DNA from: Polyangiaceae bacterium
GTDB taxonomy: Bacteria; Myxococcota_A; Polyangia; Polyangiales; Polyangiaceae
DNA: 64,000 nucleotides
NCBI GenBank assembly: GCA_033763455.1
Contig: JANRKO010000076.1
Location: forward strand, 18,836-82,835
Direction: 5' to 3'
The number at the start of each line of letters is the position of its first letter. Positions within the stretch are counted from its first letter, which is position 1. Positions 5,678 to 63,849 of this stretch are shown one piece after another. The notes under the pieces are model-generated. The model searched no databases and was not told the origin of the DNA. It saw only the letters and a program-made list of their open reading frames with translations. Made by a program: the position numbers and the translations under genes.

Positions 5678-5687
5678 AAGGCCTCCT

Positions 5688-27338: not shown

Positions 27339-28811
27339 CTAGGCGTTCTCTTTACGCGCACGCTTACTGAGTGCTCCGCGCGCCAGGCGTATCAATTCGG
27401 AAGCGTGGTTCCGGGCGACCCAAAAAGCCGTTGCCACGTACGCAGCGGCGCCGGCACCAATTTCCAAACCGAGCCTTAACAAGGCGTTCAGATCAGAAGG
27501 CACGAGGTAACGCACGCCCCACACGGCAGCGGCAAGCGGGACGCACGCCAAGAGCGGACGGAGCATCGGGCCGATCAGGTCCGTGGGCGAGATGTTGTCG
27601 GCGCGTCGGACCAACAGGGAAGCCGCTAGGGCATGCGCGCCAAAAGCCAAACCCACCGCGGCACACGCGGCGAGCTCACCCATGGGTGAAAGCAATGCAA
27701 TGAAACCCACGATGCCCAGCGCCTTGATGGCTTGGAGTGCGAAGATCTGCCCTGTTCGAGCGCCCGCGAGAAGGTACGAAGAAAGCAGCCAACCCAATGG
27801 GCGGACCACGGATAGAACCGAGAGCACCATCAACAGGGGAGCTATTCCCTGCCACTTGGCATCAAACAGAGTCTCTACGAGCGTGGCCGCCACAGCCCCC
27901 AGCCCTACGGCTAGCGGAAACACCAAAAGGGCCAGCAGGCCCCCTGCGCGAACGAGACCACGCTTACGCTCCTCAGGATCGGTCATGCGAGAGAACGATG
28001 GCAACAACACGTCGCCGATGTGCTCCCCGACTTGAGCGGCCGGAACGTCCGCGAGGTTGTAGGCCAAGCTATAACGCCCAGCTGCGTCCGTCCCAAAAAG
28101 GGCTGCGAACATCAGATTGTCCCAGCGCCGTGAGCCGATATCTAGGACCGCTGAGCCACCGAAGGGAAGGCCGAATCGCAACAGCTTCTTCACTTCCTCG
28201 AGCCGAAGCCGGACGGGAGTTAACCAGTCAGCAAAATTGACTGAAAAGGTTACGATCGCAGCAACTAGAATGTCCCGCCCGAGCGCTGCTACCACCAGGC
28301 TCATCGCCCCAAACTGATTGAAGGCCAGCAGTAGGGCTGAGGCAGCATAGGTGAATTCCCCTGCCACTTGGCTCAGGCCAATAACCCTGAACCTCATGTC
28401 TCGAACCAACAGGCGCGTGGGGATCCCCCCGATTCTTTGGCAGGCGATCCCTGCGGCGAACCAGGGGATGTACTCGGTAACGCCAGGCTCTCCGAACCAA
28501 GCGCCCAACGGTGCGGCCAGCGCGCACGCGCACGCGACGGCCAAGGCCGCCGCACTCAAGTAGATAACGCTCGCGTGGAAAGCGACGTCTCGCCCGGCCT
28601 TGGGGAAAGCCACCAGATAGTGGCCGACGCCAAGTGTGGAAACGCTGTTGACGGTCAGCAAGATGACCGACGCCACCGAAACGGCGCCGAACGCCGAGGG
28701 CTCGATGAAGCGGGTAAGGACCAGCGTACTTGCTAGGCCAACTGCCCGGGATCCGATGCTACTCGTGATGGTCCACATAGCACCGAGAGCCGCCTTGTAG
28801 CCGAGTGACAC
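27339..28811 (-). CDS. wzx: Wzx/PST-family polysaccharide flippase (paralog 1)
   Basis: Many TM segments; RDMRFR, FGLP, WDN...FG...GRYSLAYNLA, LVFPLAVGL, KWQG. GTG start at 28811 inferred. Confidence 0.9.
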   Translation of the reverse strand: MSLGYKAALGAMWTITSSIGSRAVGLASTLVLTRFIEPSAFGAVSVASVILLTVNSVSTLGVGHYLVAFPKAGRDVAFHASVIYLSAAALAVACACALAAPLGAWFGEPGVTEYIPWFAAGIACQRIGGIPTRLLVRDMRFRVIGLSQVAGEFTYAASALLLAFNQFGAMSLVVAALGRDILVAAIVTFSVNFADWLTPVRLRLEEVKKLLRFGLPFGGSAVLDIGSRRWDNLMFAALFGTDAAGRYSLAYNLADVPAAQVGEHIGDVLLPSFSRMTDPEERKRGLVRAGGLLALLVFPLAVGLGAVAATLVETLFDAKWQGIAPLLMVLSVLSVVRPLGWLLSSYLLAGARTGQIFALQAIKALGIVGFIALLSPMGELAACAAVGLAFGAHALAASLLVRRADNISPTDLIGPMLRPLLACVPLAAAVWGVRYLVPSDLNALLRLGLEIGAGAAAYVATAFWVARNHASELIRLARGALSKRARKENA

Positions 28812-28934
28812 GAGTTGCAGTCCTAACGCATAGGCGCGCAGAGAGCTATACGCCAGCGCGGGTGGTACCATTCACGACGGTCGCTGAAAAGGCGCGCGGC
28901 GCAGCTCACACCTTAAATAGGACGACAGCTCCTC

Positions 28935-40423: not shown

Positions 40424-42133
40424 ATGTCGCCGCCGCCCTCTGAAGCCCCCTCCACCCACCCACCGCTGATCTCCGTGGTGACCTTGACCTGGAATAGCGC
40501 ACGCTACATCCCGGCAATGCTCGACACCTTGATTCGGGACGCCGAAAGGAGCGAGCTTTGCATCGAGGTGCTCTTCGTGGACAACGGCTCCACAGACGAA
40601 TCCCTCGTGCTGCTGGATCGTTACCAGCAACGCCACGATTTCATTCACGTCGTCCCGCTGAGCGAGAATCGCGGCACCACCGTCCCACGGAATATTGCGC
40701 TGCGCATGGCGCGGGGCAAATACGTTTTCATTCTGGACAGCGATACGGAAATTCCGGCGGGAGCGTTGCTCGGGCTGGTTCGCGCTGCAGAATCGTTAAC
40801 AGAAGTGGGCATTATCTGCCCCAGGCTCATTTATCCGTCCGGAGATTTTCAAGAATCCGCTCGGCGCTTCCCCACTCTCAAGACCAAGGCCTACCGCTTG
40901 TTGGGTATGGAGAAGCTCCGAAAGGAAGATGAAAGCGTCGGAGACGTGCTGGAAAGCAAGACGGTTCCAGTTGATTTTGCGATGTCAGCGGCGTGGTTCT
41001 TGCCGCGTAGCGTGCTGGAGCGCGTGGGCTTGCTCGACGAACGTATTTTTTATGCGCCCGAAGACGTTGAATATTGCGCACGTGTTTGGAAGAGCGGCCT
41101 CAAGGTTTGGTACTACCCAGACGTGAGCATCGTGCACAATTGGCAGCGCATCACCAACAAGAAGCCGCTATCACGCCTGGGCCTGAGCCACACCAAAGGC
41201 CTGATGCGCTACTTCTGGGAGTACGACTCATTTCTCCGGCGCCCCGCCGTCAACTCGAGCTCCCAGGCCGCGGCTGCACCTACTAGCGCCCAAGCCTCCG
41301 TTTCCGGAGGACCCAAGCCTGCATACCCCAAGGCCTCGTTTCGTGCCGCTCGAGAGCCACAGGGCAACGGCCTTCCTCCGCTTCGAATCCTATTCGTCAC
41401 CGAAGACGATCCGCTCTACGTGCTCAAGTTCTTTGAGGTCTTCTTCGCACAATACCCCAAGGATGAGTTTTCGATCGTCGGGGTAACGGTGGACGCCGCC
41501 TTCCACGAACCTCTCACGAAGACGGCCGAACGAATGTTGAAATTCTACGGGCCTGTCGACTTCGCTCGCATGGGATTGCGCTTTGCCGAAGCCAAAGCTG
41601 AAGGACGGTCCATCGCGGCGCTTGCGCGGGAAGCCTCCGTTCCCCTCGTACCCACTCGTTCCGTGAATAGTGACGAATACGTGGCACGCGTTCGAGCGCT
41701 CGCTCCGGACGTGCTCGTTTCAGTAGCTGCGCCGGAGATATTCAAAGAACCGATCCTGAGCGTCCCCCGGCTCGGTTGTATCAACATTCACTCTGGCCGC
41801 CTCCCCGTTTACCGTGGCATGATGCCTAATTTTTGGCAGATGCGTCATGGTGAAACCTCCGCAACCATTACCGTACACGAGATGGTTCCAAAGATAGATG
41901 CCGGGAGGATCTTGGCCACTTTGGATTTTCCCCTCCGCGAGCGTGACACCTTGGATCGCGTCATCACGGAGACGAAGCGCGAGGGTGCACTTCTCATGAT
42001 GGATGTGCTGCGAAAGCTCCGTGCCGGTAGCCTCACCCCGACACCGATAGACATGTCGACGAAGAAGTACTTCTCTTTTCCTAAGCCCGAAGACGTTTCC
42101 GCGTTCCGGGCGCGGGGGCACAGGCTCCTATGA
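40424..42133 (+). CDS. GT2 glycosyltransferase - formyltransferase fusion
   Basis: N-domain VDNGSTD, LDSD, EDVEY; Ala/Ser/Pro linker; C-domain [18 protein letters not shown]...IDAG. Confidence 0.88.
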
Positions 42134-42978
42134 CCGCTTTTTCCCCCACCGCCGCCCGCCTCGCCCTTTCGATCGACGTCGAGGATTGGTTTCAGGTCGA
42201 AAATCTACGTGCGGCAGTGCCAGCTTCCAGCTGGTCCCAACGGGAATTGCGTGTTGAACAAAACACAGCTCGGATGTTGCAAGCGCTCTCCGAACAGAAT
42301 GTGCGCGGTACCTTTTTCGTGTTGGGCTGGGTTGCGGAGCGTTGCCCCGAGCTCGTACGTCGCATCGTAGCGTCCGGCCACGAGTTGGGCTGTCATGGCT
42401 ACGGGCACGACCTGTTGAACAAACTCACGCCGGACGCATTTCGGGAAGACCTAAAGCGTGCCAAGGGCCTGCTGGAGGAGCACACAGGCTCGCGCGTGCT
42501 CGGCTATCGCGCGCCCAGCTTTTCCATCACCGATTGGGCCATTGATGTGTTGAAGGAGGAGGGGTTTGCTTATGATTCCTCTGCCTTCGCGACAGTGGCT
42601 CATGATCGTTACGGAAAGCTGCAAGGCTTGGAGCGAGGGGAACCGATTACCGAGCTTCGGGACGATTTCTACGAGGTCTCTATCTCCAGCTTGAACGTAT
42701 TCGGACACAGCTTGCCCTGGGGAGGTGGAGGTTACTTTCGACTCCTTCCGTACGCAGTGTTCAAGACTGGCATTCGCGAGATCCTGCGGCGAGGCGACCC
42801 TTACATTTTCTATATCCATCCGTGGGAGATTGATCCGGCTCAACCGCGCGTCCAGGTGAGAGCAAGCTACGCGTTTCGCCACTACCTCAATTTGGATCGC
42901 TGCTTCGCTCGCTTCCAGGCGCTGCTCTCTGACTTTCGCTGGGGTACCATCCGAGAGCTCCTGCCGGCCGAGCGTTAG
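42130..42978 (+). CDS. polysaccharide deacetylase, exosortase-A/PEP-CTERM-locus type (DUF3473)
   Basis: [53 protein letters not shown] overlap. Confidence 0.92.
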
Positions 42979-43047
42979 CCCCCCATTAGCCCCCCGAGCT
43001 TGCTTGACACCCCCCCCACTTTCCGTTCACATCACGCCAATTCTCGC

Positions 43048-43794
43048 ATGCCTGCCGACTCGGTCAAACGCCTGCTCCGCCCCATCTTAAGGCGGCTGCC
43101 GTATGCAACCGTGGAGCCGGGCCCCTTGCTGCGCCCCTTGTACGCCAGCCTTTTTCGCGCGCAGTGGGTATCGCGTGAGCTTTTGGAATGGGCCGAGCGC
43201 GCCCTAATTGCAACTCCAGCTTTCCTGGCTCGCTGTGCGTCACACGGTACGGACATCACCTGTGACAGGCTTCCGTACTTGATTGGTAACGTGTCCATCT
43301 ATCTGGGTAGCCAGATACGGATCTCCGGCAAACTCGATATTATCAGTCCCCATTCGGGTGCACCGGTATTGAGGATCGGCAACGGAGTATTCATTGGGCA
43401 TGGAACGGCACTCAGTGTCGCGCGTTCCGTCGAAATCGGGGACTACGTGTCGATTGGCGCCGGCTCCTCGATCGCGGATACCGAAGGCCACAACACCTAC
43501 AATCCCATGCGCCCCATTTGGGAGGTGCCAGCGGGCCCCGACGATGTGGAGTCTGTTGTCATTGAAGATAATGTGCAAATCGGCAAGAAGGTAACGATTC
43601 TCAAGGGTGTGCGCATCGGTGCTCGTTCAGTGATTGGTGCAGGCGCCGTAGTTCGCAGCAATATTCCCGCCGATTCGGTGGTTATGGGGAATCCGGGGCG
43701 CGTCGTTCGCAGCCTGAAGCCCGCCGCTAGCCAATCTTCCCCAAATCTTGCGGCAACATCGGGGGAAGCCGCCGCTAAGGAGGCACTGTCATGA
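43048..43794 (+). CDS. left-handed beta-helix (hexapeptide) acyltransferase
   Basis: IGNGVFIG, VEIGDYVSIG, VIEDNVQIG, ILKGVRIG, GAGAVV, GNPGR. Confidence 0.9.
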   Translation: MPADSVKRLLRPILRRLPYATVEPGPLLRPLYASLFRAQWVSRELLEWAERALIATPAFLARCASHGTDITCDRLPYLIGNVSIYLGSQIRISGKLDIISPHSGAPVLRIGNGVFIGHGTALSVARSVEIGDYVSIGAGSSIADTEGHNTYNPMRPIWEVPAGPDDVESVVIEDNVQIGKKVTILKGVRIGARSVIGAGAVVRSNIPADSVVMGNPGRVVRSLKPAASQSSPNLAATSGEAAAKEALS

Positions 43795-45038
43795 TGAATT
43801 GGGGCGCGCACGATCTCACCAACATCGCCGAAAAATACGGTACTCCGTATTACCTCTACGACCTTGATGCCGCTCGGGTGCACCTGGCTGCCCTGCGCGA
43901 GCATCTACCCGGAAACGTGGAGGTGCTTTACTGCGTGAAGGCCAACCCCAACCCCCGCATCATCACGGCTTTTCAAGAGCTGGTGCCAGGCCTGGATATC
44001 TCATCCGGTGGCGAAGTGGAGCTGGCTTGCGCGGCTGGCTGGTCGCCCAGCAAGATGAGTTTTGCGGGTCCCGGAAAAACCGAGAGCGAGCTGCGGTTAT
44101 CTATTAGCCGTGGGCTTGGCTCTATCAGCATTGAGTCGGTTACCGAGCTCAATCGAATCTCCGCGCTCGCGCTGGAGCAGAAGCGCACTGTGCGTTGCCT
44201 GTTGCGCATTAATCCAGCAAGCGCGCCCAAGGGCTTTGCGATGAAAATGGGGGGCCTGGCTTCTCAATTCGGTGTTCAGGAGGAAGATAGCGCAGCCGTC
44301 TTCAAGCAGGCTCTCAATGCTCCTGGGATCAAGCTTGCAGGCATTCACATCTTTTCTGGCACGCAATGTCTAGAGCTTCCAGCTCTGGTGGAGAATGTCG
44401 AGCAAACGCTGGGAATAGCCGCAAGCTTAGCTACGGCCAATAACGTGACGCTTGAGGAGATCAATCTCGGGGGTGGCATTGGCGTCGCGTATTTCCCCGG
44501 CCAAGAAGATCTCTCCCCCACACAGGTATCGCGCGCCCTTGCAGACTCCATTCTTGCTTTTAGAACTAGGCACCCGCGCTTTGTGCAAACCAAGATTGTG
44601 GTGGAGCTTGGGCGCTACCTAATCGCACGTTTTGGCGTCTACGTGACGCGAGTGGTGGATGCCAAGCTCACGCGCGACCGTCGGTTTGTGATCATGGACG
44701 GCGGCATGAATCACTGTTTCCCAGCGACGGGCAACTTTGGCCAGCTGGTTAAGAAGAACTACCCTGTCGAGAACCTTTCTCGCTCCGTAGCAGAGAACGA
44801 ATGGGTGCCCCAGGAGCTCGTGGGCCCACTGTGTACGCCCCTGGATTCAATGGCACGCAACGTCGCTTTGCCGCTCTGCGAGACGGGTGACCTCATCGCC
44901 GTCAAGAATTGCGGAGCGTACTCCTTCAGTGCGAGCCCGTTGATGTTTCTGAGCCACGCCACGCCGCTTGAGTTGCTCTCCTTCAAAGGTGAGCTGAGCG
45001 TGGCCAGACGCCGTATCCTCGCCAGCGAGTTTGTTTGA
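43791..45038 (+). CDS. fold-type III PLP-dependent decarboxylase (exosortase-A-associated type)
   Basis: YCVKANP, FAGPGK, HIFSGTQ, ELGRY, DGGMNH, GPLCTPLD, GAYSFSASP. Confidence 0.88.
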   Translation: MMNWGAHDLTNIAEKYGTPYYLYDLDAARVHLAALREHLPGNVEVLYCVKANPNPRIITAFQELVPGLDISSGGEVELACAAGWSPSKMSFAGPGKTESELRLSISRGLGSISIESVTELNRISALALEQKRTVRCLLRINPASAPKGFAMKMGGLASQFGVQEEDSAAVFKQALNAPGIKLAGIHIFSGTQCLELPALVENVEQTLGIAASLATANNVTLEEINLGGGIGVAYFPGQEDLSPTQVSRALADSILAFRTRHPRFVQTKIVVELGRYLIARFGVYVTRVVDAKLTRDRRFVIMDGGMNHCFPATGNFGQLVKKNYPVENLSRSVAENEWVPQELVGPLCTPLDSMARNVALPLCETGDLIAVKNCGAYSFSASPLMFLSHATPLELLSFKGELSVARRRILASEFV

Positions 45039-45100
45039 GCTTTCGTTTAGATTTGCCTCAAATCCCCACTTACCACATTGTTGTTCAGGACCCCCGCACC

Positions 45101-45361
45101 ATGAATGAATCTGAAGTCCGCCGTAGAGTTCGGCAGTTCATCGAGAGCACCTTCCTCGGAGAGATGGACCCCTCTGAGCTCCAGGATGATTCTTCCCTGG
45201 AGCAGCTGCACCTGGTAGATTCCATGCGCTCCATGGATTTGATCCTCTTCGTTGAGGAAACGTTCGGCGTCACGGTCGAAAACGACGAGGCGCTGCCCGA
45301 GAATTTTGACAGCGTTAGCAACGTTGTTGGGTTTGTAACAAGGAAGCGCGCCGGAGGCTGA
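45101..45361 (+). CDS. stand-alone acyl/aminoacyl carrier protein (DltC-like)
   Basis: VDSM (Ppant Ser), FVEETFGV, PENFDS. Confidence 0.9.
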   Translation: MNESEVRRRVRQFIESTFLGEMDPSELQDDSSLEQLHLVDSMRSMDLILFVEETFGVTVENDEALPENFDSVSNVVGFVTRKRAGG

Positions 45362-45363
45362 AC

Positions 45364-46950
45364 ATGCTCGTAAGTCAAGTCACGCTGCTGCAGGAATACC
45401 TGGAACGGAACGCCGCCAAGTACGCGGCGAAGACGGCGCTTGTCTTCAAGCAAGAGCGGTTGACTTGGGGTGAGGTGAACGAAGCTGCCGATAGGCTTGC
45501 CAATTGCTTGCGGGCAGCGGGGGTCGAGCGTGGTGATCGCGTCGTTATATACCTCGACAACGGCGTCCAATCGGCTGTTTCCATCTTCGGTGTGCTCAAG
45601 GCAGGTGCCGTTTTCAGCGTCGTGAACTCGCAAACTAAGAGCGACAAGCTGCTCTACATGCTGAATGATTGCCGAGCCAAGGCACTCATTACTAGCAAGT
45701 ACCTTTCACGCACCTACGCGGAAGTGCTGCCTGACGCGCCGCACTTGAAAGTTGCCTTCATCGCTGAGTCTGAGACGGACATCGCGCACGTGCGGGTCAT
45801 GGAGTACCAAGCTGCACTTGCGGCCGCTTCGAGCCTCCCTTTGCCGGTGCGCTCGATTACTGTGGATCTAGCCGCCATCATCTATACGTCGGGCTCCACG
45901 GGCGATCCGAAGGGCGTGATGCTCACGCACCAAAACATGGTGGCCGCCGCGGAGTCCATCACGACGTACGTTCGAAATGTCCATGACGACGTGGTAGTGA
46001 ACGTGTTGCCGATGTCGTTCGACTATGGCTTGTACCAGTGGCTGATGGTGAACCAATTTGGCGGCACGTTGGTGTTGGATAGCTCGTTCAACTACCCAGC
46101 CGCGGTGCTGAAGGTAATAGCGGAGGAGCAGGTCACCGGGCTTCCCGTGGTGCCCACGATCGCTTCGCTGTTGGCGCAGTTCGCCCAAACTGGCACCACG
46201 CTTCCTGGGGTGCGCTACGTCACGAACACCGCCGCAGCCCTCAGCCCAACGCACATCGAAGTGCTGAAGAAGGTGTGCCCCAATGCTCGCATCTACAGCA
46301 TGTACGGCCTCACCGAGTGCAAGCGGGTGTGTTACTTGCCACCCGAAGATCTTGATCGGAAGCCGGATTCGGTGGGGCGCGCGATGCCCAACATGGAAAC
46401 ATTCGTACTCGACCCTGAAACACAGCAGGAAATGCCACGTGGTGAGGTGGGTGAGTTGGTGGTGCGGGGTCCGCAGGTCATGAAAGGCTACTGGGAAAAG
46501 CCTGAGGTAACCGCGAATTGGCTCAAGCCCGGAAAGATCCCAGGCGAGAGTTGGCTGTGGACGGGTGATTTCTTCAAGATGGACGAAGAGGGGTACCTCT
46601 ATTTCGTCTCTCGCAAGGACGACATCATCAAGAGCCGCGGCGAGAAGGTCAGCCCCAAAGAAGTGGAGAACGCGCTCTATGCACTTGCAGGAGTGCAAGA
46701 TGCGGCGGTTATCGGAACACCAGACCCCGTTTTCGGCGAAGCTATCCGGGCATTCTTGGTGCTTTCACCGGGCGTCTCGTATACCAAGCAGCAAGTTATC
46801 TCTCATTGCGGCGCTCGGCTCGAAGGCTTCATGGTGCCGAAGTACGTTACCTTCCTCACCGAAATGCAGAAGACCACGAGCGGCAAAATCACCAAGAAGG
46901 ATCTTGTGGGCTACGCGCGCGAACACTTTTCGGCTGGCGACGAAGTTTAG
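45364..46950 (+). CDS. AMP-forming acyl/aminoacyl ligase
   Basis: YTSGSTGDPKG, SFDYGLYQ, MYGLTE, TGD, SRKDDIIK, TTSGK. Confidence 0.92.
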   Translation: MLVSQVTLLQEYLERNAAKYAAKTALVFKQERLTWGEVNEAADRLANCLRAAGVERGDRVVIYLDNGVQSAVSIFGVLKAGAVFSVVNSQTKSDKLLYMLNDCRAKALITSKYLSRTYAEVLPDAPHLKVAFIAESETDIAHVRVMEYQAALAAASSLPLPVRSITVDLAAIIYTSGSTGDPKGVMLTHQNMVAAAESITTYVRNVHDDVVVNVLPMSFDYGLYQWLMVNQFGGTLVLDSSFNYPAAVLKVIAEEQVTGLPVVPTIASLLAQFAQTGTTLPGVRYVTNTAAALSPTHIEVLKKVCPNARIYSMYGLTECKRVCYLPPEDLDRKPDSVGRAMPNMETFVLDPETQQEMPRGEVGELVVRGPQVMKGYWEKPEVTANWLKPGKIPGESWLWTGDFFKMDEEGYLYFVSRKDDIIKSRGEKVSPKEVENALYALAGVQDAAVIGTPDPVFGEAIRAFLVLSPGVSYTKQQVISHCGARLEGFMVPKYVTFLTEMQKTTSGKITKKDLVGYAREHFSAGDEV

Positions 46951-47051
46951 TTCACTCTCGCACGGCAGTGGCCTGGACGGGCTCGTGGTACGAATCGCCG
47001 AGACGTTCGGTCGGGGAGCACGAAGGCCTGAAGGCGCCTTAACCGAGGGCC

Positions 47052-50000
47052 TCAGAAAACTACTTCGCTCATGCCTGCCTGGCGCGCGGTGGGGGTTCGC
47101 TCTTGAGAGCGTGCCTCCACACGTTTAGCGAGTTCAGCGATTGTGGGTGATTCGAAAACATCGCGGAGTGAGAGCCGGCTGCGACCCGCGGCCGACACCT
47201 TGCTGAGCATGCGCATCGCCAACAGCGAATGGCCGCCCAAATCGAAGAAATCATCGTGAATGCCCACGGCTGGCTTCTGCAGCACGTCCCGCCAAATCTC
47301 CGCGAGCCAGCGCTCAGTCTCCGTTGTGGGGGCTACCATCTCGACGTCGAGCTGGCGTTCCCGTGGGCTCGGAGCCGGTAGCTGCGCGATGTCTATCTTG
47401 CCGCTCGGCAAGCGCACAAGCTCGGCGAGTAGCACGAAATGTTGAGGAACCATGGCCGTTGGAAGCCTTTCCCGCAGCTTCACCCGCAGTGACTGAGCGC
47501 TCACCACTTCTCCGGGTTTCGGCACAACGTAAGCGATCAGCTCGGGGCCCAAACCTTCGAGCTCTCGCACGAGCACCGCACACTCGCCGACCAGCTCTGA
47601 GGCAAGCAGCGTCGACTCAATCTCGCCGAGCTCCACACGCAGCCCTCGCAGCTTCACCTGGCTATCGGTGCGACCCACAAATTCCAGCGCTCCCGAAGCC
47701 CGGCGCCTGACGCGGTCACCGGTCTTGTAAAGACGGGCCCCGGGAACCTGCGAAAAAGGGTCAGGGAGCAAGCGTTCACGCGTCCACTCGGGGTGGTTGA
47801 CGTACCCCCGAAATAGCTGGGGGCCACCGAGGTACAGCTCTCCGACCACCCCGATCGGCACCGGCTCCAGCTTTGGCCCAAGTACGTACGCCGTGCAGTT
47901 CGCAAGCGGCGAGCCGATGAGCACGCGTTCGGGCTCGGTATTGGGCTCCCAGGTCCAGGCTACTGCATTTACGGTGGCCTCTGTCGGCCCGTACAGGTTG
48001 ACGAGCGGAATGCCGAGCGTGTCGACGCACTTCTTTCCGACTGCGTAGGGAAGCTGTTCGCCGCCGCACTGGAAGCGGCGCAGGCTCCGGCACTCGCTCA
48101 GCCGGGGATGTTCGGAAAACCCCTTGAGTACGGCGGGCACCGTATCGAGCACGGTGATCTGGTTGCGAATGACCGCTTCGAACAGCGCTTCGGCATCGCC
48201 GTCAAGTGGCCGTTCGGGAACGACGAGCTCCGCGCCCGAACACAAGGTGCCGAAAATTTCCCACACCGAGGGATCGAAATTGAGGCTGTACTGTTGCAGC
48301 ACGCGATCCCCTGGTTGGAGGGGACAGACGAGGCTCATGGCGTGGAGCAAGTGCGCCACCGCCGCGTGAGTGATCTCGACTCCCTTCGGGCGACCCGTGG
48401 AGCCCGAGGTGAAAAGCACGTAAGCCACCGCTTCGAGTGAAGGCCCACTCGAGATGGGATCGGTGGAAGTGCGGTCGAGCGCTGCTTGATGCTCGGCCAA
48501 CGTCACCACGCGCGCTCCTGCGAAGTTGGGGGTCGGTTGCGCCACTGAGTCCGCGGTTGCCTGCAGTTGCAGCACCACGCTCACACCGCTTTCCTTCGCC
48601 ATCCACTCGAGGCGTTCCTCGGGATAGTCGGGATCGAGTGGAAGATAGGCGGCTCCAGCCTTGAGGATGCCGAGCAATACCGAATACAGGGCGGGCTCGC
48701 GCGGCATGTAGACGCCAACGGTGCTTCCAGCGCTTACGCCAAAGTTGCCCAGCCAACGCGCGATTTGATTAGCCCTGGCGTTGAGGGCGGCATAAGAAAC
48801 CTGGCCGTCGTGGGTCATCAACGCGGGTGCATCGGGAGTGCGCTCCGCTTGTTGCTCGAACAGGTGACTCACCGGGCCGAGCTCGGGAACAACGACGCCA
48901 GTCGCGTTCCATTCGCTCTCCGAAGTTTGCTCAGCAACGCTGCCGAGCGGGATCTGTTGGATCGGGAGGTGCGTGTTCTGAACCAGATCCGAGATGAGCG
49001 CCTCATAATGCGCCATCCAGCGCCGTGCGGTTTCAGGATCGATCAGATCTAGGTTGTGGTCGCATTCCAGGAGGAGCGCGCCATCCGTTTCGATGACGTT
49101 CAATGAGAGGTCAAGCATCGCGTAGTCACGCGGCGTCGAGACGTATTCAGCCTTGAGGCCCCGGAATTCGAGCCCTGGCAGCGCTGGATCCACGTTGAAA
49201 TCTACCGAGATGAGAGTGGGGCGAGCTGGATCCCGATCTACGCTCACGTGTTTGAGGAGCGTGCCGAGGGTGAAATCCTGATGCTCGTTTGAATCCAGGA
49301 GTTGCTGTTTGATTCTTAGCAGAAGATTCGCTAAATTTTCTGCTGGATCGAGTTGGATACGCAGGGGTAGGTAGTTCACGCAGTGTGCGATGAGGTCATT
49401 GGCGCCCAGTTGTGCTTGGCCCGCTGCCGGGATCCCGATCGCGAGATCGCTCTGCCCGGTGAGGCGATGCATCAGCACCGAAAAAGCGCTGAGTAGCACG
49501 GAAAATAGCGTGCATTTCTCTGCCTTGGCGTATTCCTTGAGTCGATTGCCCACCGAGCGGTCGATAGTTTTGGCGTGCCGCATCGAGCGGAACGTCTTCC
49601 GTGCTGGCCGGGGCCTATCGAAGGGCAGCTCGATGGGAGCTGGCACCGTAGAATACTGGTGGATCCAGAAGGCTTGGCTCTCCTTCGCTTCAGCCGATTG
49701 AGCGTGCTCACGTTCCCACTCGGTGTAGTCCGCCAACTGGCGAGGTGGGCTCAATTGAGAGGAGCGACCCGTCAGGTTCGACGTGTACAGCTGGCTGAGG
49801 TCATGAATCAGGATCGAAATCGACCAACCGTCGCAGACAATGTGGTGCACGGTGACCAACAGCTCATGATCGTCCGGGGCAAGCTTGATAAGCGTCGCCC
49901 GCACCAAAGGGCCGCGCGTGAGGTCGAACGGCGTGCGGCTATCTTCCCGGTAGAAATCCGAACGCGCCTGTTCGCGCTCGCTTTCCGACAATGCCGATAG

Positions 50001-56813: not shown

Positions 56814-56983
56814 GCTAACGCTTCCTTGTGCCAGCTACTGAGAAAACCTGCGCCGTGAGCTGCGAGCATACCTCAACCACCATCCGCCCCGCGTGGGGGC
56901 CGCCCAACACCATAGGTGAAGGGGCTCGCCGTGGCCACCCATTAGCCCATATCTGGAATCGAGGCACCGCCCTTATCCGTTCC

Positions 56984-57952
56984 TCAGAACACGATGCGTT
57001 CTTTGCTTGAACTTGCGGGAGGCGCCGAACTTCGATGGGAACGCCGCCGTGTGCTCGGTGGGGTTTGCGAGACCTCTAGCTCAGAAAACCGGCGGCCTAG
57101 CCACGCCTCGATATGGCAGACCAAAGATTCACGGTCAGCGAGAACTGTATAAGTGTGGTCGGCCGGGCCCAGGAAATGAACGTCGGCACATTGGGCAAGC
57201 TCAGGGGCAGGGAACATCTCCGCGAATTGGCGCTCATGGTTGAAGTAGCCCGAACCGCCGCTGTAGATGAAAAGCAACTTCGCCCCACGCTTCGCTAGGC
57301 GCGACAAGTGGCCGGCAACCACCGACGCTGGCGGGAACTGCCGGTCAAAGATGTCGAGCGCTGCCCCGGCTGGTGACCCCGCACTTGCGGCGCCCTTTCC
57401 GGGATGTTGGAGTGCCTTCAACGCCGCGAGTGAGGTCGCATTTTTCACCTGGCGGCTGAGGAACGCTAGCACCTTCTTGGGCTGCAGGGCGCGGGCCAGG
57501 TAGTGTCGTCGATAGAAGCCTGCCGTGCGAAAACCAAACCCGTCGAGCAATACCGCGCCCACAACGCGCGCATCCGCTACAGCCGAGGAGAGAGCGTCGT
57601 CCGCACCTGAGCAGAGCCCGAGCAGCACGAAGCGATCGAAACTATATTGTTGCTGCAAGTAGTCCATGGCGGCTTGCACGTCCACGACGGCACGTTCCAA
57701 TTCATTGAGATCATCTACAGGAAGCTCGCTGTCGCCGAGACCGGATAGGTCAAATCGCAAGGTTGCGAAACCAACGCTCGCGAGCCGCCTAGCCAGCTCC
57801 ACATACAAGCGGTAGGGGCCAACACGATGCAGCACGCCCGCGTTCACGAAGATCAGCGCAACTTCTCGACGCTTGTCACCTATGGGAAGGGTGAGCACGC
57901 CCATGAGGTTCTTTCGTGTCTCGCGACCAAAACTGCAAGCGCGTTCAAGCAT
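56984..57952 (-). CDS. alpha/beta hydrolase (exosortase-A 'hydrolase 1'-like)
   Basis: HRVGPYRLYVELARRLA, RFDLSGLGDS, GLCSGA, ADHTY. ATG at 57952 overlaps the upstream stop. Confidence 0.85.
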   Translation of the reverse strand: MLERACSFGRETRKNLMGVLTLPIGDKRREVALIFVNAGVLHRVGPYRLYVELARRLASVGFATLRFDLSGLGDSELPVDDLNELERAVVDVQAAMDYLQQQYSFDRFVLLGLCSGADDALSSAVADARVVGAVLLDGFGFRTAGFYRRHYLARALQPKKVLAFLSRQVKNATSLAALKALQHPGKGAASAGSPAGAALDIFDRQFPPASVVAGHLSRLAKRGAKLLFIYSGGSGYFNHERQFAEMFPAPELAQCADVHFLGPADHTYTVLADRESLVCHIEAWLGRRFSELEVSQTPPSTRRRSHRSSAPPASSSKERIVF

Positions 57953-58733
57953 GATGCCTCGCCGTAAGGAGTGAAGTGATCGTGCGCACACTTGCCGGAA
58001 CGAGTAGGGCCTCCTCGATCTGGCTCGCATCGCCCCAGGCGCCCCGTTCGGGGAGGTCGACCCAGGCCACCTTGCCGCCTGCGGCACGGTAGGTGTTTGA
58101 GAGGACCGTGGCTTCGGCGTCGTTTGGCTCAGCCAACAACACCGCCTCGCCGCAGGTCGGCACGGGGGTACTTGCCAAGTTGAGCGCCGCAAGGTCTTGG
58201 CGCAGCAAACGGGGGTACGCGAAGCCTACCAATTCATCCGGACCTGTTTCGCGTCCCTCGGGAAAACGCAGCGGATCCCGAAGTACCCCACGCTGGAGCT
58301 CCCCCAGCTCCTCAAGATACTTTCGACCCGAACACACTGGGTCCCAAAGCACAAGGGTGTCGACCCGGAGCGACGGAGTCGCCGCCAGAGCAGCAAGCGT
58401 CGCTCCGAAGCGCCATCCAACCACCGACAGGGTCCGGAGTTCTCCCAACGTTCGGAGTTCGGCCGCGGCGCACTCGGTATCTTCAATCCAGCGGGTGAGA
58501 CTGCCCTCCCCGCTCGCGCCCGCAGAATCGCCCGTGCCGAAGTAATCGAAGCGCAGTACGTGGAAGTTGGCCTGCGTGAGTTGTTTGCCCAGCAACTTTA
58601 GCGCGCGGTGGGTGCGGATGTGCTCCTGGCCGAGTGGGGGGCAAATGAGCACTCCACAGGTGGAGGCGAGCTTGGGAGCTTCATAAATCGCAAACAGGGG
58701 TGAGTGGGAGGGACCGAAGAAGAATGGGTGCAT
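57945..58733 (-). CDS. alpha/beta hydrolase-fold protein (exosortase-A 'hydrolase 2'-like), no Ser nucleophile
   Basis: CPPLGQE, RFDYFGTGDS, GWRFG at the nucleophile elbow, LWDPVCSG. Confidence 0.85.
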   Translation of the reverse strand: MHPFFFGPSHSPLFAIYEAPKLASTCGVLICPPLGQEHIRTHRALKLLGKQLTQANFHVLRFDYFGTGDSAGASGEGSLTRWIEDTECAAAELRTLGELRTLSVVGWRFGATLAALAATPSLRVDTLVLWDPVCSGRKYLEELGELQRGVLRDPLRFPEGRETGPDELVGFAYPRLLRQDLAALNLASTPVPTCGEAVLLAEPNDAEATVLSNTYRAAGGKVAWVDLPERGAWGDASQIEEALLVPASVRTITSLLTARHHA

Positions 58734-58740
58734 CGCGCGC

Positions 58741-61700
58741 TCAGGTTCCGTTTTGGCCTGCAGGTAGCTGGCTGGCGATGTGACCGAGGGAGTTGAGTAG
58801 GAAGAGAGCAGGGCTCAGCTCCACACCCTTGTCGTGACGGATTCGAGCAATAACCTGAATGGAGAGCAGCGAATGCCCCCCGCGATCGAAGAAATTGTCC
58901 CCGATGCTAACATCCTCAATTCCCAGTATTTCGCGCCAAATGGCAGCCAAATAGCGTTCTTGGATTGTGCGCGGTGCAATGCTGCCGGCATCGTTGGGTG
59001 CAGCCACGGCGGTAGGTGGGGGTAACGCCATACGGTCCAGCTTTCCGGAAGGTGTCAACGGTAGCTGATCCAGAACGACAACATGCTGCACCACCATGTA
59101 GTCTGGCAACTGACGGCGCAGGTGCGCTCTTAGGTCCGTCACCGTGGGCGGGCGCTCGTGGCACGTGATGTAGGCGACCAAGCGGGCGTCTCCGGCTTGA
59201 GGCTGCCAAACGTTCACGAGACAATTCTTGATGGCCGGGTGCTCCGAAAGCACGCTCTCGATCTCAGCGAGCTCGATGCGAAAGCCACGGATCTTGACTT
59301 GCTGATCGAATCTTCCACCGAAGCGGAGTGCGCCATCGCGTTCTTGCCAGACACGATCCCCCGTTCGGTACATTCTGGCGCCCGGCTCGGACGAAAAAGG
59401 ATCTGCAACAAAGCGTTGCCGCGACAGCTCTTCTCGATGGAGGTAGCCCGCCGCTACTCCTGCGCCCGCAATGAACAGTTCGCCGGGTACTCCGTAGGGC
59501 ACGGGTTGGAACTCGGGGTCGAGTACGTAAAGCGTCGTGTTGTCGATGGGCTCCCCCAAGGTGATGGGGGAAGTAGCGCTAAGGCGAGCACAGGTGGACC
59601 AAACGGTGGTCTCGGTGGGGCCATACATGTTCCACACTTCCGAACAACGCTTGAGGAGTGGCTCGAGCAGGTCCAGCGGGAAAGGCTCACCGCCCGAAAG
59701 CGCGCGAAAATTAGGCGGAGGTTGCCACTCCGCAGCGAGCAATAGACGCCAGGTTGCTGGCGTTGCCTGCAGCAGTGTGGCACCACTTAGACCAAGCTGA
59801 CGGCCGAGCGCTGCCCCATCTCGCCCGACTTCTTCACTCACCAACTCGACGCGAGCGCCTACAGTGAGCGGCAGAAAAAGCTCTAGCACGGCGATGTCAA
59901 AGGAGAGCGTCGTCACCGCAGCAAGAACATCATCTGCTTTCAGGCCCGGCCGGCGCGCCATGCTCCCCAGGAAATTGACTACGTTTCGATGCTGAACCCG
60001 CACGCCTTTGGGCTTGCCGGTGGAGCCTGAAGTGTAAATCACATACGCCGTATCATCGAGTGAGCGGGTAAGATCCGGTACCGAGTTGGAGTCGCTCTGA
60101 AGGGCAGTGTAACCCTCATCCAAACACACCAACCACCCTGGAAGTGCGGGCAGCCGCTGCTGGACGCTTTGGGTCGTGACCACTCCAACGGGAGCTGCAT
60201 CTTGGACGATGTAGCTGAGCCGTTCCGAAGGATCCTGAGGGCTCAGCGGCAGGTAACCAGCACCCGTTTTCAGGATTGCCAAAAGCGTAACGAGGAGATC
60301 CAAGCTGCGCGGTACCGCGACGCCCACTAAACATCCACGCCCGGCTCCGCGCTGAATCAGGTGCTGGGCTAGATCATTCGCACGCTGCTCCAAGCCTCCG
60401 TAGCTCAGATAGGCACCCTCGAAGCTCACCGCAATTCGCGCCGGTGCGCGTTGTGCTTGAGACTCAAAAAGCTCATGAAAGCCGCCGATCTGCGGCAGGG
60501 CTACGACGGGCCCATGGTGGCGCCGCAAGAGTTGTTCTCGATCGGCGGGAGCGAGCCATGCGGTAGCCGCAACGCGATGATCGGGGTTTTGGATGAGGGC
60601 CGAGAGCAATCTAACGTAGCGCTGTCCCAGCTCGACGATCGTCCCTCGCTCGAACAAATCCGTAGCATATTCGAAAGCGACACTTAGGCCGCGCGAATTG
60701 CGGCTCAGCCAAACGCTGGCGTCCGTTCTCGACACTCCTGCGGAGATCGAACGACGCTCGCTCACTGAGAGTGGTGCTTCGGGGCGGTACGCTTGCTCGC
60801 CCGCATCTTCGAACGAGAACATCGTCTGGAAGATGGGTGTTCGCCGGAGGTCCCGAGCTGGCGCTACTGCTTCTACTAACTTCTCAAAAGGAACTTCCTG
60901 GTGTTCGAACGCCTCCAAACACACATCTCGCACATGCCGAAGCAGCGCCTTGAAGGCCCATTCGGGATCCAAGCGTAACCGTAGCGGGAGGGTATTTACG
61001 AACATGCCGATCAACGGCTCGGTTTCCTCGGGTGAGCGGTTGGCTACAGGAATTCCAACCACTATCTCTGAATCTCCAGTGGAACGCGCGAGGAGCGCTA
61101 CATACCCAGCAAGAAGTGTCATGAATAACGAAGCACGTTCCGCTCGCGCTAAGGCCTCAAACTGCTGCAACAGCGCGTTGGGCAACTCAAGGGTTACCAC
61201 ATCTCCCGCGCTGGAAAGGACTGCCGGCCGCGGAAAGTCGGAACGCAGCTCCAGGCTGGGCAAAGGCGGCGCTAACACACCCTTCCAATACGCAAGATCT
61301 GATTCAAGGTCAGTGCCCGACGGGTACAGGCGCTGCCAAGCTGCGTAGTCGGAGAATTGAAACGCTAGCTCGGGCAAGTCAGCGGGCTTGCCGGTAACTT
61401 CGGCGGCGTACAGCGCCAAAAGCTCGCGTTCGAACACGTTCTGGGACCAACCGTCCCAAATAATGTGGTGGACAACGAGCACCAAGAGGGATCGCTGCGG
61501 TTCGAGAAGGAATACGCGACAGCGCAGCAAGGGGTCCGTTTGTACGTCAAAAGGCAAAGCCACTTCGGCGCGCTCCGCGGCCTCGCATTGGTGCACAGCG
61601 TCCGGTACCCCGCGGAGATCGGTAACCTGAAGCTGCACGAGAGGTGTGTTCGAGATAAGCAGCTCCGGGCCTTCGGCTCCGAGCGGAAACCTCGCGCGCA

Positions 61701-62091
61701 GGACCTCGTGACGGTTCGCCAACGCTTTCAACGCCACTCCGAGCGCTCGTACGTCGAGAGCGCCCTGCAGTTCGAACTCGACCCCAATGGTGTGAAGGGG
61801 CGTCCCTGGTTCGAGCTTTTCGAGGTACCAGATCCGCTGCTGCGAGGAGGACAGGAGCGCTTTGGTACCCGCTGGTCGAGGGCAAATCGGAGGACGCCCG
61901 TCCCGTGAGTTCAGGAGCGCGATCAGTTCGGCTTTGTGGGTTCGGATCCGTTGACCCAGCTCGGGCGAGAGAACCCCCGGTCGCGCCTCACAGGCTAGGT
62001 TCTCACCTTGCACGCGGACCCGAACCTGCAGGGCTTGAAGGTCCGACAGGAGCGGCTCTAGCGAAGTTGTAACTACGTCCGAACCTCCCAT
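58741..62091 (-). CDS. NRPS: TubC-type N-terminal docking domain-C-A(Gly-like)-T, no TE
   Basis: LSDLQALQVRVRVQGENLACEARPGVL...HKAELIALL; HHIIWDG; FDIAVLEL/QATP/YGPTETTVW; GGHSL. Confidence 0.93.
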   Translation of the reverse strand: MGGSDVVTTSLEPLLSDLQALQVRVRVQGENLACEARPGVLSPELGQRIRTHKAELIALLNSRDGRPPICPRPAGTKALLSSSQQRIWYLEKLEPGTPLHTIGVEFELQGALDVRALGVALKALANRHEVLRARFPLGAEGPELLISNTPLVQLQVTDLRGVPDAVHQCEAAERAEVALPFDVQTDPLLRCRVFLLEPQRSLLVLVVHHIIWDGWSQNVFERELLALYAAEVTGKPADLPELAFQFSDYAAWQRLYPSGTDLESDLAYWKGVLAPPLPSLELRSDFPRPAVLSSAGDVVTLELPNALLQQFEALARAERASLFMTLLAGYVALLARSTGDSEIVVGIPVANRSPEETEPLIGMFVNTLPLRLRLDPEWAFKALLRHVRDVCLEAFEHQEVPFEKLVEAVAPARDLRRTPIFQTMFSFEDAGEQAYRPEAPLSVSERRSISAGVSRTDASVWLSRNSRGLSVAFEYATDLFERGTIVELGQRYVRLLSALIQNPDHRVAATAWLAPADREQLLRRHHGPVVALPQIGGFHELFESQAQRAPARIAVSFEGAYLSYGGLEQRANDLAQHLIQRGAGRGCLVGVAVPRSLDLLVTLLAILKTGAGYLPLSPQDPSERLSYIVQDAAPVGVVTTQSVQQRLPALPGWLVCLDEGYTALQSDSNSVPDLTRSLDDTAYVIYTSGSTGKPKGVRVQHRNVVNFLGSMARRPGLKADDVLAAVTTLSFDIAVLELFLPLTVGARVELVSEEVGRDGAALGRQLGLSGATLLQATPATWRLLLAAEWQPPPNFRALSGGEPFPLDLLEPLLKRCSEVWNMYGPTETTVWSTCARLSATSPITLGEPIDNTTLYVLDPEFQPVPYGVPGELFIAGAGVAAGYLHREELSRQRFVADPFSSEPGARMYRTGDRVWQERDGALRFGGRFDQQVKIRGFRIELAEIESVLSEHPAIKNCLVNVWQPQAGDARLVAYITCHERPPTVTDLRAHLRRQLPDYMVVQHVVVLDQLPLTPSGKLDRMALPPPTAVAAPNDAGSIAPRTIQERYLAAIWREILGIEDVSIGDNFFDRGGHSLLSIQVIARIRHDKGVELSPALFLLNSLGHIASQLPAGQNGT

Positions 62092-62214
62092 TGTCTGCTC
62101 TTTGCGAGCTAGCACGGATCCACGCGCCTGCGCACCCCTTTGGTATGTCCGTACGCGACCCGGGGCACGCGCTTATTTGGAGCTAGCAACGTGCGCCCGC
62201 CTCATCTACGAAAG

Positions 62215-63699
62215 ATGGGGCTCATCTTGCTAGCGCGGAAGATCTTCGGTGGGGCCCTATGGGTGGTCGGCTCGGGCCTGGTGGCCCGAGTGGTAGGGCT
62301 TTTCGGAACGCTGGCCATCACGCGTTTTCTTTCACCCGAGCAAATGGGGGAGGTGGGTGTCGCTGTCATCTTGACTACGACGGCCACCGAGCTCTCCAAC
62401 TTGGGTTTCGGGCAGTACGTCATTGCGAACGTGAAACGGGAGGCGCGTGCGTTTCATGTGACAATGTTCAACTTGGTGACCGCCGCAGTGGCACTGGTCA
62501 TTACCTGGGCGTTAGCGGGGACACTCGGGGTGGCTTTCGATGCCCCCGCCATGGTGCGGTTCATTCCCGGCATGGCGGTGGCGATGTTTTTCCACCGCCT
62601 CTCGTTGGTCCCAGAGTCAATCGTACTTCGTGATCTACGCTTCCGGGTCTTCTCCGTAGGCGCGGGGACGACGGACTTGATGTTCACGGTGACCTCACTC
62701 GGGTTGGCTACTCTCGGCTTCGGGGGCGGGGCCATCGTTATCGGGAATCTGGTACAGCACGGCGCCAGGCTGTTGTACTTTGCTGTCGCCGCCGGCTGGC
62801 GTGCTTGGCTTCAACCCGAGAAGCTGAGAGTGAGCGAAGCCCGAGAGATCTTGCGCTTCGGCTTGCCACTCGCAGTCAGCAATATTTCCGGCTTTGCGGC
62901 AGTGAAGTGGGATAACATGATCATGAGCCGGGCGTTTGGTCCGGGTGTGATGGGTACCTATGGCTTGGCCTACAATTTGGCCACCATCCCGGCGGATCAT
63001 GTCGGCACTGCCACGAGCGACGTGCTCATGCCGAGTTTCGCCAGTATGCCGGATGGGCAGGTGCAGCGTGCGTTCGTGCGCTCCATCAAGCTCCTGGCTC
63101 TTGTGGTCTTTCCACTCGCCACAGGGCTCGGAGCCATTTCCGGGACGCTCGTGGTGGCGCTCTTCAGAGCTGAGTGGCAAGGAGTCGCTCCGTTTCTGCT
63201 CATCTTGGGCATGCTCTCTTTGGCGAGCCCCATCGGGGATGCGATTCACGTCTATCTGTGTGCGCGGCGTCGGACGCGTGCAGCGATGGTCCTCTCGCTG
63301 TTCGGAACCGCCCTTCTGCTTTCGCTCGTAGCACTGGGTGCGCAGGTGAGCCCTGAGTGGGCAGCCGTTGGGGCAGGCCTGGGCGGGTGGTGCCATGCGG
63401 CTGCTGGTTTGGCGCTGGCCCAACGTTTGGATGCGGTCCCGGCGCGCGAAGCACTGCGCCAGCTCGTGCCGCCAGCGTTAGCTAGTGCTGTTATGGTCGG
63501 GGTGGTGTTCGGGGTGCGTGCCACGCTCACGGCGTTGGGGGGTCTGCCGAGCGTCGCACTTCTGGGCGTCGAGGTCCTCGCAGGGGCCTTGGCATACGTG
63601 ATAGCGGTGTTCGCGCTGGCCCCCGGCGCCAGCCGCGAGCTGTTGGGTCACCTCCGGAGCGCCCTTCGGCGCCGTGCGAAAGGGGCGGAGCAGGGGTAG
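62215..63699 (+). CDS. wzx: Wzx/PST-family polysaccharide flippase (paralog 2)
   Basis: RDLRFR, FGLP, WDN...FG...YGLAYNLA, VVFPLATGL, EWQG; clearly similar to 27339-28811. Confidence 0.9.
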   Translation: MGLILLARKIFGGALWVVGSGLVARVVGLFGTLAITRFLSPEQMGEVGVAVILTTTATELSNLGFGQYVIANVKREARAFHVTMFNLVTAAVALVITWALAGTLGVAFDAPAMVRFIPGMAVAMFFHRLSLVPESIVLRDLRFRVFSVGAGTTDLMFTVTSLGLATLGFGGGAIVIGNLVQHGARLLYFAVAAGWRAWLQPEKLRVSEAREILRFGLPLAVSNISGFAAVKWDNMIMSRAFGPGVMGTYGLAYNLATIPADHVGTATSDVLMPSFASMPDGQVQRAFVRSIKLLALVVFPLATGLGAISGTLVVALFRAEWQGVAPFLLILGMLSLASPIGDAIHVYLCARRRTRAAMVLSLFGTALLLSLVALGAQVSPEWAAVGAGLGGWCHAAAGLALAQRLDAVPAREALRQLVPPALASAVMVGVVFGVRATLTALGGLPSVALLGVEVLAGALAYVIAVFALAPGASRELLGHLRSALRRRAKGAEQG

Positions 63700-63849
63700 G
63701 GGCAGGCTATTCAGCTGCCGGGCTTTCGGCCGTCACGGGCTGGCTTTCGCTGCTTCAGTCGCTGATACCTTTCAATCTCTTAGTCATTAGCCCCCTGCGC
63801 AACGTCAGGTGTGAAAGGCTTGAAGGCATTCGATATGGACCAACCCGTG

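Follow-up and report, generated by a model that had tools for sequence, protein, structure and literature searches.

How does an assembly line that lacks a thioesterase release its product, and what is such a line doing between genes for glycan tailoring? These questions are raised by a 64,000-nucleotide stretch of a Polyangiaceae genome (GCA_033763455.1, contig JANRKO010000076.1, positions 18,836 to 82,835; hereafter the window), in which a hybrid non-ribosomal peptide synthetase (NRPS)-polyketide synthase (PKS) line with an embedded pair of alpha/beta hydrolases, hydrolase 1 and hydrolase 2, lies between a Wzx-type flippase gene (wzx) and a convergent glycosyltransferase operon. The original prediction held that the line makes a short acyl group, which the pair would transfer onto a lipid-linked sugar before Wzx flipping. 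Our comparison of related loci gives good support to the pair as a putative off-loading device for the last carrier domain, and makes the sugar acceptor a more tentative part of the picture. The locus consists of 11 open reading frames (ORFs), listed here with A, T, C, KS and AT standing for adenylation, carrier, condensation, ketosynthase and acyltransferase domains:

40424..42133, plus strand: glycosyltransferase family 2 (GT2)-formyltransferase fusion (PF00535, 85.8 bits; PF00551, 58.9 bits)
42130..42978, plus strand: NodB-type polysaccharide deacetylase with DUF3473 (TIGR03006, 336.5 bits; PF01522, PF11959)
43000..43794, plus strand: hexapeptide (left-handed beta-helix) acyltransferase of the sugar O/N-acetyltransferase type (PF00132, 52.9 bits)
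43791..45038, plus strand: pyridoxal phosphate-dependent decarboxylase, BtrK type (TIGR03099, 411.3 bits; PDB BtrK matches)
45035..45361, plus strand: stand-alone acyl carrier protein (ACP) with DSM serine motif (NCBIfam ACP families, best 3e-14, residues 23-106)
45364..46950, plus strand: stand-alone AMP-forming (adenylating) ligase (PF00501, 322 bits; TIGR03098, 453.8 bits)
47052..56813, minus strand: hybrid NRPS-PKS of 3253 aa, A-T-KS-AT-T-aminotransferase-C-A-T (Pfam domains and motifs)
56984..57952, minus strand: hydrolase 1, alpha/beta hydrolase with Cys nucleophile, GLCSG (TIGR03100, 91.5 bits; alignment to solved hydrolases)
57945..58733, minus strand: hydrolase 2, alpha/beta-fold paralogue with Arg at the nucleophile position, GWRFG (TIGR03101, 92.6 bits)
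58741..62115, minus strand: NRPS module with TubC-type N-terminal docking domain, C-A(Gly)-T (PF18563, PF00668, PF00501, PF00550)
62140..63699, plus strand: MOP/Wzx-type flippase (PF13440, 151.9 bits; at least 8 hydrophobic segments)

The hydrolase pair as a candidate off-loading device

The arrangement agreed with the original prediction, every gene being recovered at its expected position: two co-oriented megasynthetases with the hydrolase 2/hydrolase 1 pair between them, wzx on one side, and on the other the convergent operon of GT2-formyltransferase, deacetylase, acyltransferase, decarboxylase, ACP and ligase. No thioesterase (TE) domain was found in either megasynthetase by Pfam scan. On the minus strand, the end of the C-A-T gene was separated from hydrolase 2 by 7 nt and hydrolase 1 from the hybrid by 170 nt, and the start of hydrolase 1 was reassigned to an ATG that gives an 8-nt overlap with the end of hydrolase 2. 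The wzx gene diverges from the C-A-T gene, 24 nt from its start, and the stop codons of the two convergent operons are 101 nt apart; the NRPS operon is thus enclosed by wzx and the GT2 operon, that is, by glycan-type genes on both flanks.

A search for related loci with the pair returned at least 563 relatives among at least 600 matched stretches, and the best 80 loci were analysed (L-numbers below denote such loci; G000 is the window's own genome and other G-numbers are compared genomes). The two hydrolase genes were neighbours in 78 of the 80, and NRPS/PKS parts were present in 71. In 38 of the 80 loci, from many phyla, the gene immediately preceding hydrolase 2 encoded a megasynthase whose last domain was a carrier, with -3 to 252 nt (at most 55 nt in 37 of the 38) between its stop and hydrolase 2. 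In 27 of these 38 carriers, the usual F-x-x-P-T-I/V-x-x-L-A was replaced by x-L-N/Q-T-L-x-Q-I/V-A, hereafter the terminal-T motif. The last T domain of the window carried a close variant, LLNSLGHIA (58741-58960), and the motif was found neither in the window's other carriers nor in the ACP. Many of the carriers preceding the pair (L050-L126) also had a basic C-terminal tail. The motif may serve the pair in recognising its carrier.

In alignments with solved alpha/beta hydrolases, the Cys of hydrolase 1 and the Arg of hydrolase 2 each took the place of the Ser nucleophile. Both C114 and H266 of hydrolase 1 were kept in all 74 sequences compared and R108 of hydrolase 2 in all 79, each set drawn from many phyla. 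Hydrolase 2 is presumed to be a catalytically inactive partner, and the gene coupling and co-conservation suggest that the two proteins form a heterodimer. The AlphaFold model of hydrolase 1 (predicted local distance difference test 87) returned, among the Foldseek matches listed, generic esterases and lipases only, with no thioesterase or polyhydroxyalkanoate-synthase-like fold, and the fold is therefore uninformative on function. Hydrophobic segments were absent from both proteins, so any transfer by the pair would be cytoplasmic, ahead of flipping.

Together, the missing TE, the T-ending neighbours, the terminal-T motif, the 7-nt spacing, the translational coupling and the invariant Cys/His and Arg argue well for the pair as a trans-acting release or transfer device for the terminal carrier domain, replacing the release domain. 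The earlier proposal that the pair handles the assembly-line product was thereby strengthened, a likely role being that of off-loader.

Fused hydrolase 2-hydrolase 1 proteins of 593-624 aa were seen in G015 (L033:9214-11073), G021 (L032:9805-11586) and G022 (L022:3156-5030); the fusions of G015 and G021 were accompanied by DUF1839 and an acyl-CoA-dehydrogenase-like gene, and a small phosphopantetheinyl transferase (PPTase) was present in G015 only. An identical hydrolase 1 occurred in L106 and L108, from metagenome-assembled genomes labelled Gammaproteobacteria and Acidobacteria, probably a binning or shared-sample effect.

Predicted product of the assembly line

The catalytic motifs of the hybrid and of the C-A-T protein were intact, including two HHxxxDG condensation motifs and four carrier serines. 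The PKS module was of type I, as judged by its KS motifs TACSTS, HGTAT and GHLIAAAG (Cys-His-His), its AT motif GHSMG and its carrier motif GFDSL, and a class-III aminotransferase with its Lys present followed in-line behind KS-AT-T. The NRPS parts showed the C, A (A10 Lys) and T motifs and had no release domain of the TE or reductase type. Since the hybrid begins without a C domain and the C-A-T protein bears a docking domain, the implied order of the line is hybrid, then C-A-T protein.

Specificity codes of the A domains were read by a local motif rule, based on GrsA-PheA numbering and applied without alignment. The loader code, DVQITAHVVK, is one we take to be Pro-like; the second A domain of the hybrid (DPWDQGLVNK) had no assigned substrate, and the code of the C-A-T protein, DILQLGMVWK, is presumably that of Gly. 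The chain on the last carrier would be a Pro-derived 3-amino acid, then an amino acid X, then Gly. These readings, with the beta-amination step, are in line with the Pro, Gly and beta-amino-acid content anticipated in the original prediction.

Iturin/mycosubtilin-type and microcystin-type beta-amino modules have the order loader-T-KS-AT-T-aminotransferase-C-A-T. The window's hybrid shares this order and the in-line class-III aminotransferase, and differs in having a Pro-like amino-acid loader instead of a fatty acyl-AMP ligase and in lacking a TE. The nearest database proteins with its domain set were 50-54% identical (best full-length match 54%) among 120 listed homologues, none of which bore a product-specific name. 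The unit of hybrid plus pair was shared by seven relatives, in which the loader codes were Pro-like (G002, G007 and G022) or Val-like (G001, G016 and G034) and Gly modules recurred, G022 having three.

The corramycin cluster of Corallococcus was considered as a known match and rejected: it has a TE, and the pair goes unmentioned in the available part of its description (PMC10099666). At L087, L092, L109 and L121 (Acidimicrobiia, Acidobacteriaceae), an acyl-CoA dehydrogenase gene adjoined the pair, in L121 together with an ornithine cyclodeaminase gene; such neighbours fit a step from prolyl-carrier to pyrrolyl-carrier, echoing the window's Pro-like loader.

The convergent plus-strand operon

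The genes of this operon are tightly packed, with 4-nt overlaps at three of the five junctions, among them that of the deacetylase start over the GT2-formyltransferase stop. The formyltransferase domain (residues ~391-557) matched the ArnA formyltransferase (PDB 8gjh, 3.3e-18) and also Fmt; the fusion protein showed the DxD motif and the formyltransferase Asn/His/Asp motifs, and had no hydrophobic segment. For the hexapeptide acyltransferase, the NCBIfam matches were of the WbbJ/NeuD/WcaF type, all below cut-off.

The decarboxylase matched BtrK best (PDB 7ru7 and 2j66; E 3e-81, full length), clearly ahead of diaminopimelate decarboxylases (5e-51), and the next two genes encode the ACP, which probably begins at an internal Met around residue 23, and the adenylating loader, whose PDB matches were the LgrA A domain (6.5e-82) and VinN (3wvn, 2.9e-68). 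These features point to a decarboxylase of BtrK type that would act on carrier-bound Glu or Asp. The part of the literature available to us describes Glu or Asp that is side-chain-loaded on an ACP and then decarboxylated by BtrK, CtaF or FlvO to gamma-aminobutyric acid (GABA) or beta-alanine (PMC11350588). Judged by its sequences, the ligase/ACP/decarboxylase triad matches this beta-alanyl/GABA-ACP logic of butirosin and vicenistatin biosynthesis.

The butirosin (BtrI/BtrJ/BtrK/BtrH) and vicenistatin/fluvirucin (VinN/L/O, FlvN/L/O) systems likewise combine a free-standing ACP with an adenylating loader and a BtrK-type decarboxylase. The window's loader is an AMP-ligase as in VinN, whereas butirosin uses the ATP-grasp protein BtrJ. 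The butirosin pathway ends with transfer of the aminoacyl group from its ACP to an amino sugar. The candidate transferase of the window is the hexapeptide acyltransferase; homologues of BtrH or VinK were not seen, no search having been aimed at them. The genes for the acyltransferase, decarboxylase, ACP and ligase are arranged alike in G020, with 51-60% identity (58% for the acyltransferase), and an acyltransferase-ligase-decarboxylase trio was also found in G030, which makes the hexapeptide acyltransferase the natural candidate user of the ACP-bound unit.

Comparison with known systems

Five window genes had their best matches in the exosortase A-associated set (TIGR03101, TIGR03100, TIGR03098, TIGR03099 and TIGR03006), with the same hydrolase 2 to hydrolase 1 order. 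The deacetylase exceeded the TIGR03006 cut-off (336.5 bits versus 276.2) over nearly the full length. The other four fell below their cut-offs: hydrolase 1 scored 91.5 versus 168.45 for TIGR03100, covering profile positions 11-184 of 274 only; hydrolase 2 scored 92.6 versus 202.75 for TIGR03101, covering positions 1-146 of 266; the decarboxylase scored 411.3 versus 478.45 for TIGR03099, and the ligase 453.8 versus 592.35 for TIGR03098. The family resemblance noted earlier thus stood as best matches for five genes, and as membership for the deacetylase only. Unlike the catalogued set, the pair here is wired to an NRPS carrier, and the decarboxylase stood beside the pair in none of the best 80 loci.

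A TIGR03100 protein is listed in the exopolysaccharide cluster Bcam1330-1341 of Burkholderia cenocepacia, according to the available part of PMC3584217. Our literature searches found no paper on the function or chemistry of the pair and its associated families, and a term search of Haft et al. 2006 (PMC1569441) found no mention of the hydrolases, ligase or decarboxylase.

The likeness to Dlt D-alanylation, a concept raised in the original prediction, lies in the movement of a carrier-bound aminoacyl group to an envelope polymer. The difference is that no DltB MBOAT or DltD family was present among the scanned window ORFs, which sets the locus apart from Dlt-type systems, and that transfer here would be catalysed by a cytoplasmic alpha/beta hydrolase with a Cys nucleophile. 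The Arn pathway is similar in logic only, by the combination of an ArnA-related formyltransferase domain, a GT2 and a NodB-family deacetylase in one operon; it differs in that the window's GT2 has no membrane segments and ArnT and ArnE/F are not present. A hexapeptide acyltransferase next to an ACP likewise recalls LpxD in logic only.

Genomic setting and association with glycan genes

Families were assigned in the 11 ORFs of the locus and in 43 larger ORFs upstream. Among these, ABC and MFS families had zero matches, in agreement with the exporter-free setting claimed in the original prediction. The wzx product is of the Wzx/MOP type by PF13440 and its multi-pass character, its score against the equivalog NF007773 being 135.2, below the cut-off of 273. 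The contig ends at window base 64000, shortly past wzx, so that the stretch 3' of wzx lies beyond the sequence; the genome comprises 6.56 Mb at 59% G+C and is 93.7% complete, and matches of MXAN_5187, GltG and EspA type suggest Myxococcota. A scan of 44500-64000 gave 0 promoter-like sites, and terminator-like sites were no commoner than in shuffled sequence. Two further features lie upstream:

20160..20885, minus strand: Sfp-type PPTase (NF042923 and NF050105, ~133 bits, below cut-off; membership uncertain)
27339..28871, minus strand: second Wzx-type flippase, bounding the glycan-tailoring region on its left (NF007773, 151.1 versus a cut-off of 273; membership uncertain)

The PPTase lies 26 kb from the assembly line and may activate the five carrier domains; elsewhere, PPTases adjoin the pair in L052, L065, L082, L106 and L125. 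Between 27339 and 38444, the second wzx is joined by genes for a GalE-like epimerase, three ATP-grasp proteins, ComA/ComB-like proteins (phosphosulfolactate synthase/phosphatase), a methyltransferase, a PgaB-like deacetylase and a LamG-VanZ membrane protein, a set that suggests further unusual substituents, perhaps sulfolactate or amino acids. Gene pairs of DUF1552 and DUF1592-DUF1588-DUF1595-DUF1585 type, two of which lie at 3-7511, are found again next to the NRPS unit of G001, G002 and G007 and are probably lineage-typical neighbours.

Several comparisons tie the pair to glycan genes. Matches to a glycan panel (tblastn, ~10 kb) were found at 9 of the 71 NRPS/PKS-linked pair loci, compared with 160 of 5000 random 20.8-kb windows of G000 (3.2%), a rough control from one genome; glycan genes are thus about 4-fold enriched and still a minority. 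At pair loci without NRPS, wzx/GT/Wzy-type matches occurred in 5 of 9, and the fused pairs of G015 and G021 sit in Bac_transf/Wza/Wzx or AsnB/GT loci. Three of the seven relatives with the hybrid-plus-pair unit had glycan genes (G001, G010 and G022): Wzy_C adjoins the unit in G001 and G010, the other side in G010 holds Wzx, Wza, two GT4 and two deacetylases, and G022 has two GT2 and GlmS. Among 28 diverse loci, a Pfam scan covering 231 flanking ORFs gave five clear glycan cases (L058, L075, L076, L125 and L126) and two weak ones (L093 and L123). When the flanks of five negative loci were widened to 30 kb, Desulfoluna turned positive, with GT2/GT4/GT2/AsnB beyond the NRPS.

Other observations weigh against a sugar as the acceptor of the NRPS-PKS product. 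No glycan-panel match lay within ~10 kb at 62 of the 71 NRPS/PKS-linked pair loci; glycan genes were absent from 21 of the 28 loci scanned with Pfam, from four of the seven relatives (G002, G007, G016 and G034, with flanks of 10 to 30 kb) and from four of the five loci widened to 30 kb. The original prediction had named a general lack of polysaccharide genes at homologous clusters as an outcome that would speak against it, and this is largely what the counts of 62/71, 21/28 and 4/7 describe. The window ORFs scanned contained one GT2 and two Wzx and no initiating transferase/Bac_transf, Wzy_C or Poly_export/Wza, and so do not make up a complete Wzx/Wzy-dependent locus within the sequence that ends at 64000. 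The hydrolase scores lie far under the curated cut-offs, and no exosortase reached the cut-off in the 93.7% complete genome, PF09721 giving one partial match (24.6 bits, below the cut-off of 25.7, on another contig; PEP-CTERM was not searched). The plus-strand operon was found in none of the seven relatives with the hybrid-plus-pair unit, and the BtrK-like decarboxylase at none of the 80 pair loci; with the hexapeptide acyltransferase as a candidate transferase of its own, the operon does not need the hydrolase pair. At some pair loci, Mla, PLD and LPG_synthase_TM genes point to lipids instead.

Other recurrent neighbours of the pair were PPTases, acyl-CoA dehydrogenases, Mla genes, LPG_synthase_TM and VanZ. 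In a tree of 77 hydrolase 1 rows, built by a quick method from translations of 250-340 aa, glycan and NRPS contexts were interleaved with at least 17 context changes, and the window's branch was unresolved. In a Gemmatimonadota genome, a hexapeptide acyltransferase was fused with a phosphopantetheine carrier (L097:17784-18800); a radical SAM gene adjoins the fusion, and a PKS with the pair lies in its vicinity.

Proposed mechanism and alternative explanations

Our best explanation of the locus as a whole, to which we assign slightly less than even probability, is that two carrier-protein systems are joined in one glycan-tailoring locus. The domains observed in the NRPS-PKS line suggest that it would load a Pro-like amino acid, extend it with malonate and convert the beta-keto group to a beta-amine, then add one amino acid (code unassigned) and finally Gly. 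Hydrolase 1 would take the chain from the last carrier domain onto its Cys and, with hydrolase 2 and its fixed Arg as non-catalytic partner, pass it on to a nucleophile. In the convergent operon, the VinN-like ligase, the ACP and the BtrK-like decarboxylase would produce a beta-alanyl- or GABA-type aminoacyl-ACP. The acyltransferase, deacetylase and GT2-formyltransferase would most likely use it on an amino sugar, first freeing the amine and then acylating it, in a manner resembling LpxC/LpxD and ArnA/C/D. We favour a scheme in which both products are attached, on the cytoplasmic side and ahead of Wzx flipping, to a sugar linked to a lipid or a nucleotide; for the NRPS product, this last step is its least supported part.

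For this last step, the TE-less line, the pair as putative off-loader, its cytoplasmic character and the nested locus speak for the acyl grafting before Wzx proposed in the original prediction, and the mostly glycan-free homologues and the operon's own hexapeptide acyltransferase speak against it. That the NRPS-PKS product is grafted onto a lipid-linked sugar is therefore possible and somewhat doubtful, the idea having been weakened by the comparison of homologous clusters. In its specific form, in which the Cys/Arg pair acts as a transacylase that delivers the Pro-derived beta-amino acid-X-Gly, via a glycyl thioester, to an amino or hydroxyl group of the sugar, we consider it rather unlikely.

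The glycan-free majority of NRPS/PKS-linked pair loci (62/71) is what would be expected of an ordinary secondary-metabolite cluster, in which the pair hydrolyses or cyclises the peptide to a free molecule that the MOP protein may export, next to an unrelated glycan operon. Minimal loci in Pirellulaceae and a gammaproteobacterium, which consist of an aminotransferase, A-T, the pair and a PPTase amid housekeeping genes, fit such a cluster, as do the 11 of 11 Corallococcus rows of the hydrolase 1 tree without glycan-panel matches (C. exercitus having none to 30 kb) and the relatives that carry the hybrid-plus-pair unit without the plus-strand operon. However, a Cys nucleophile with a fixed-Arg partner exceeds the needs of a plain hydrolytic thioesterase, the pair also occurs in glycan loci without any NRPS, and glycan genes are enriched about 4-fold and here flank the operon on both sides; on balance, a free metabolite appears somewhat unlikely.

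Two further explanations were judged improbable. In one, the two carrier systems would be coupled, hydrolase 1 passing the peptide to the amine of the beta-alanyl- or GABA-ACP and the hexapeptide acyltransferase moving the whole acyl group to a de-N-acetylated or deformylated sugar. The catalogued set of ligase, ACP, decarboxylase, hydrolase 2 and hydrolase 1 is complete within 14 kb here, the genome holds one copy of the pair, that of the window, and aminoacyl-capped carrier-bound amines are a known feature of butirosin/vicenistatin logic (in part PMC11350588). Such coupling is nevertheless difficult to reconcile with the absence of the BtrK-like decarboxylase from all 80 pair loci, with the decarboxylase cassettes of G030, G002 and G006, which have no pair nearby, and with an ACP that has no terminal-T motif. 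In the other, equally improbable explanation, the acceptor would be a membrane lipid or another envelope molecule and the product an amino-lipid or lipopeptide-like compound. Mla genes (MlaE, MlaD, ABC ATPase and auxiliary lipoprotein) do lie beside the pair in Desulfoluna (L054 and L142), Novipirellula (L086) and G034 (L044), with PLD in Novipirellula and LPG_synthase_TM in L106 and G022, but none of these families is present in the window, and the window's line starts with an A domain of the amino-acid type instead of a fatty acyl ligase.

Implications

If the pair generally takes the place of the release domain, it would explain how many 'orphan' TE-less NRPS/PKS lines finish their products in Myxococcota, Gemmatimonadota, Planctomycetota, Acidobacteriota, Actinomycetota and other phyla, given at least 563 relatives among at least 600 stretches, and it would be a new marker for genome mining. 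For a gene set catalogued by association only, the plus-strand operon offers testable chemistry, namely aminoacyl-ACP formation, decarboxylation and N-acylation of a freed sugar amine. If the transacylase reading is true, some of the pair loci, which number more than 500, would represent a new route joining NRPS/PKS chemistry to glycan assembly. Should the acceptor be a sugar polymer, surface polysaccharides could bear assembly-line peptides that escape both standard glycan analysis and metabolite extraction.

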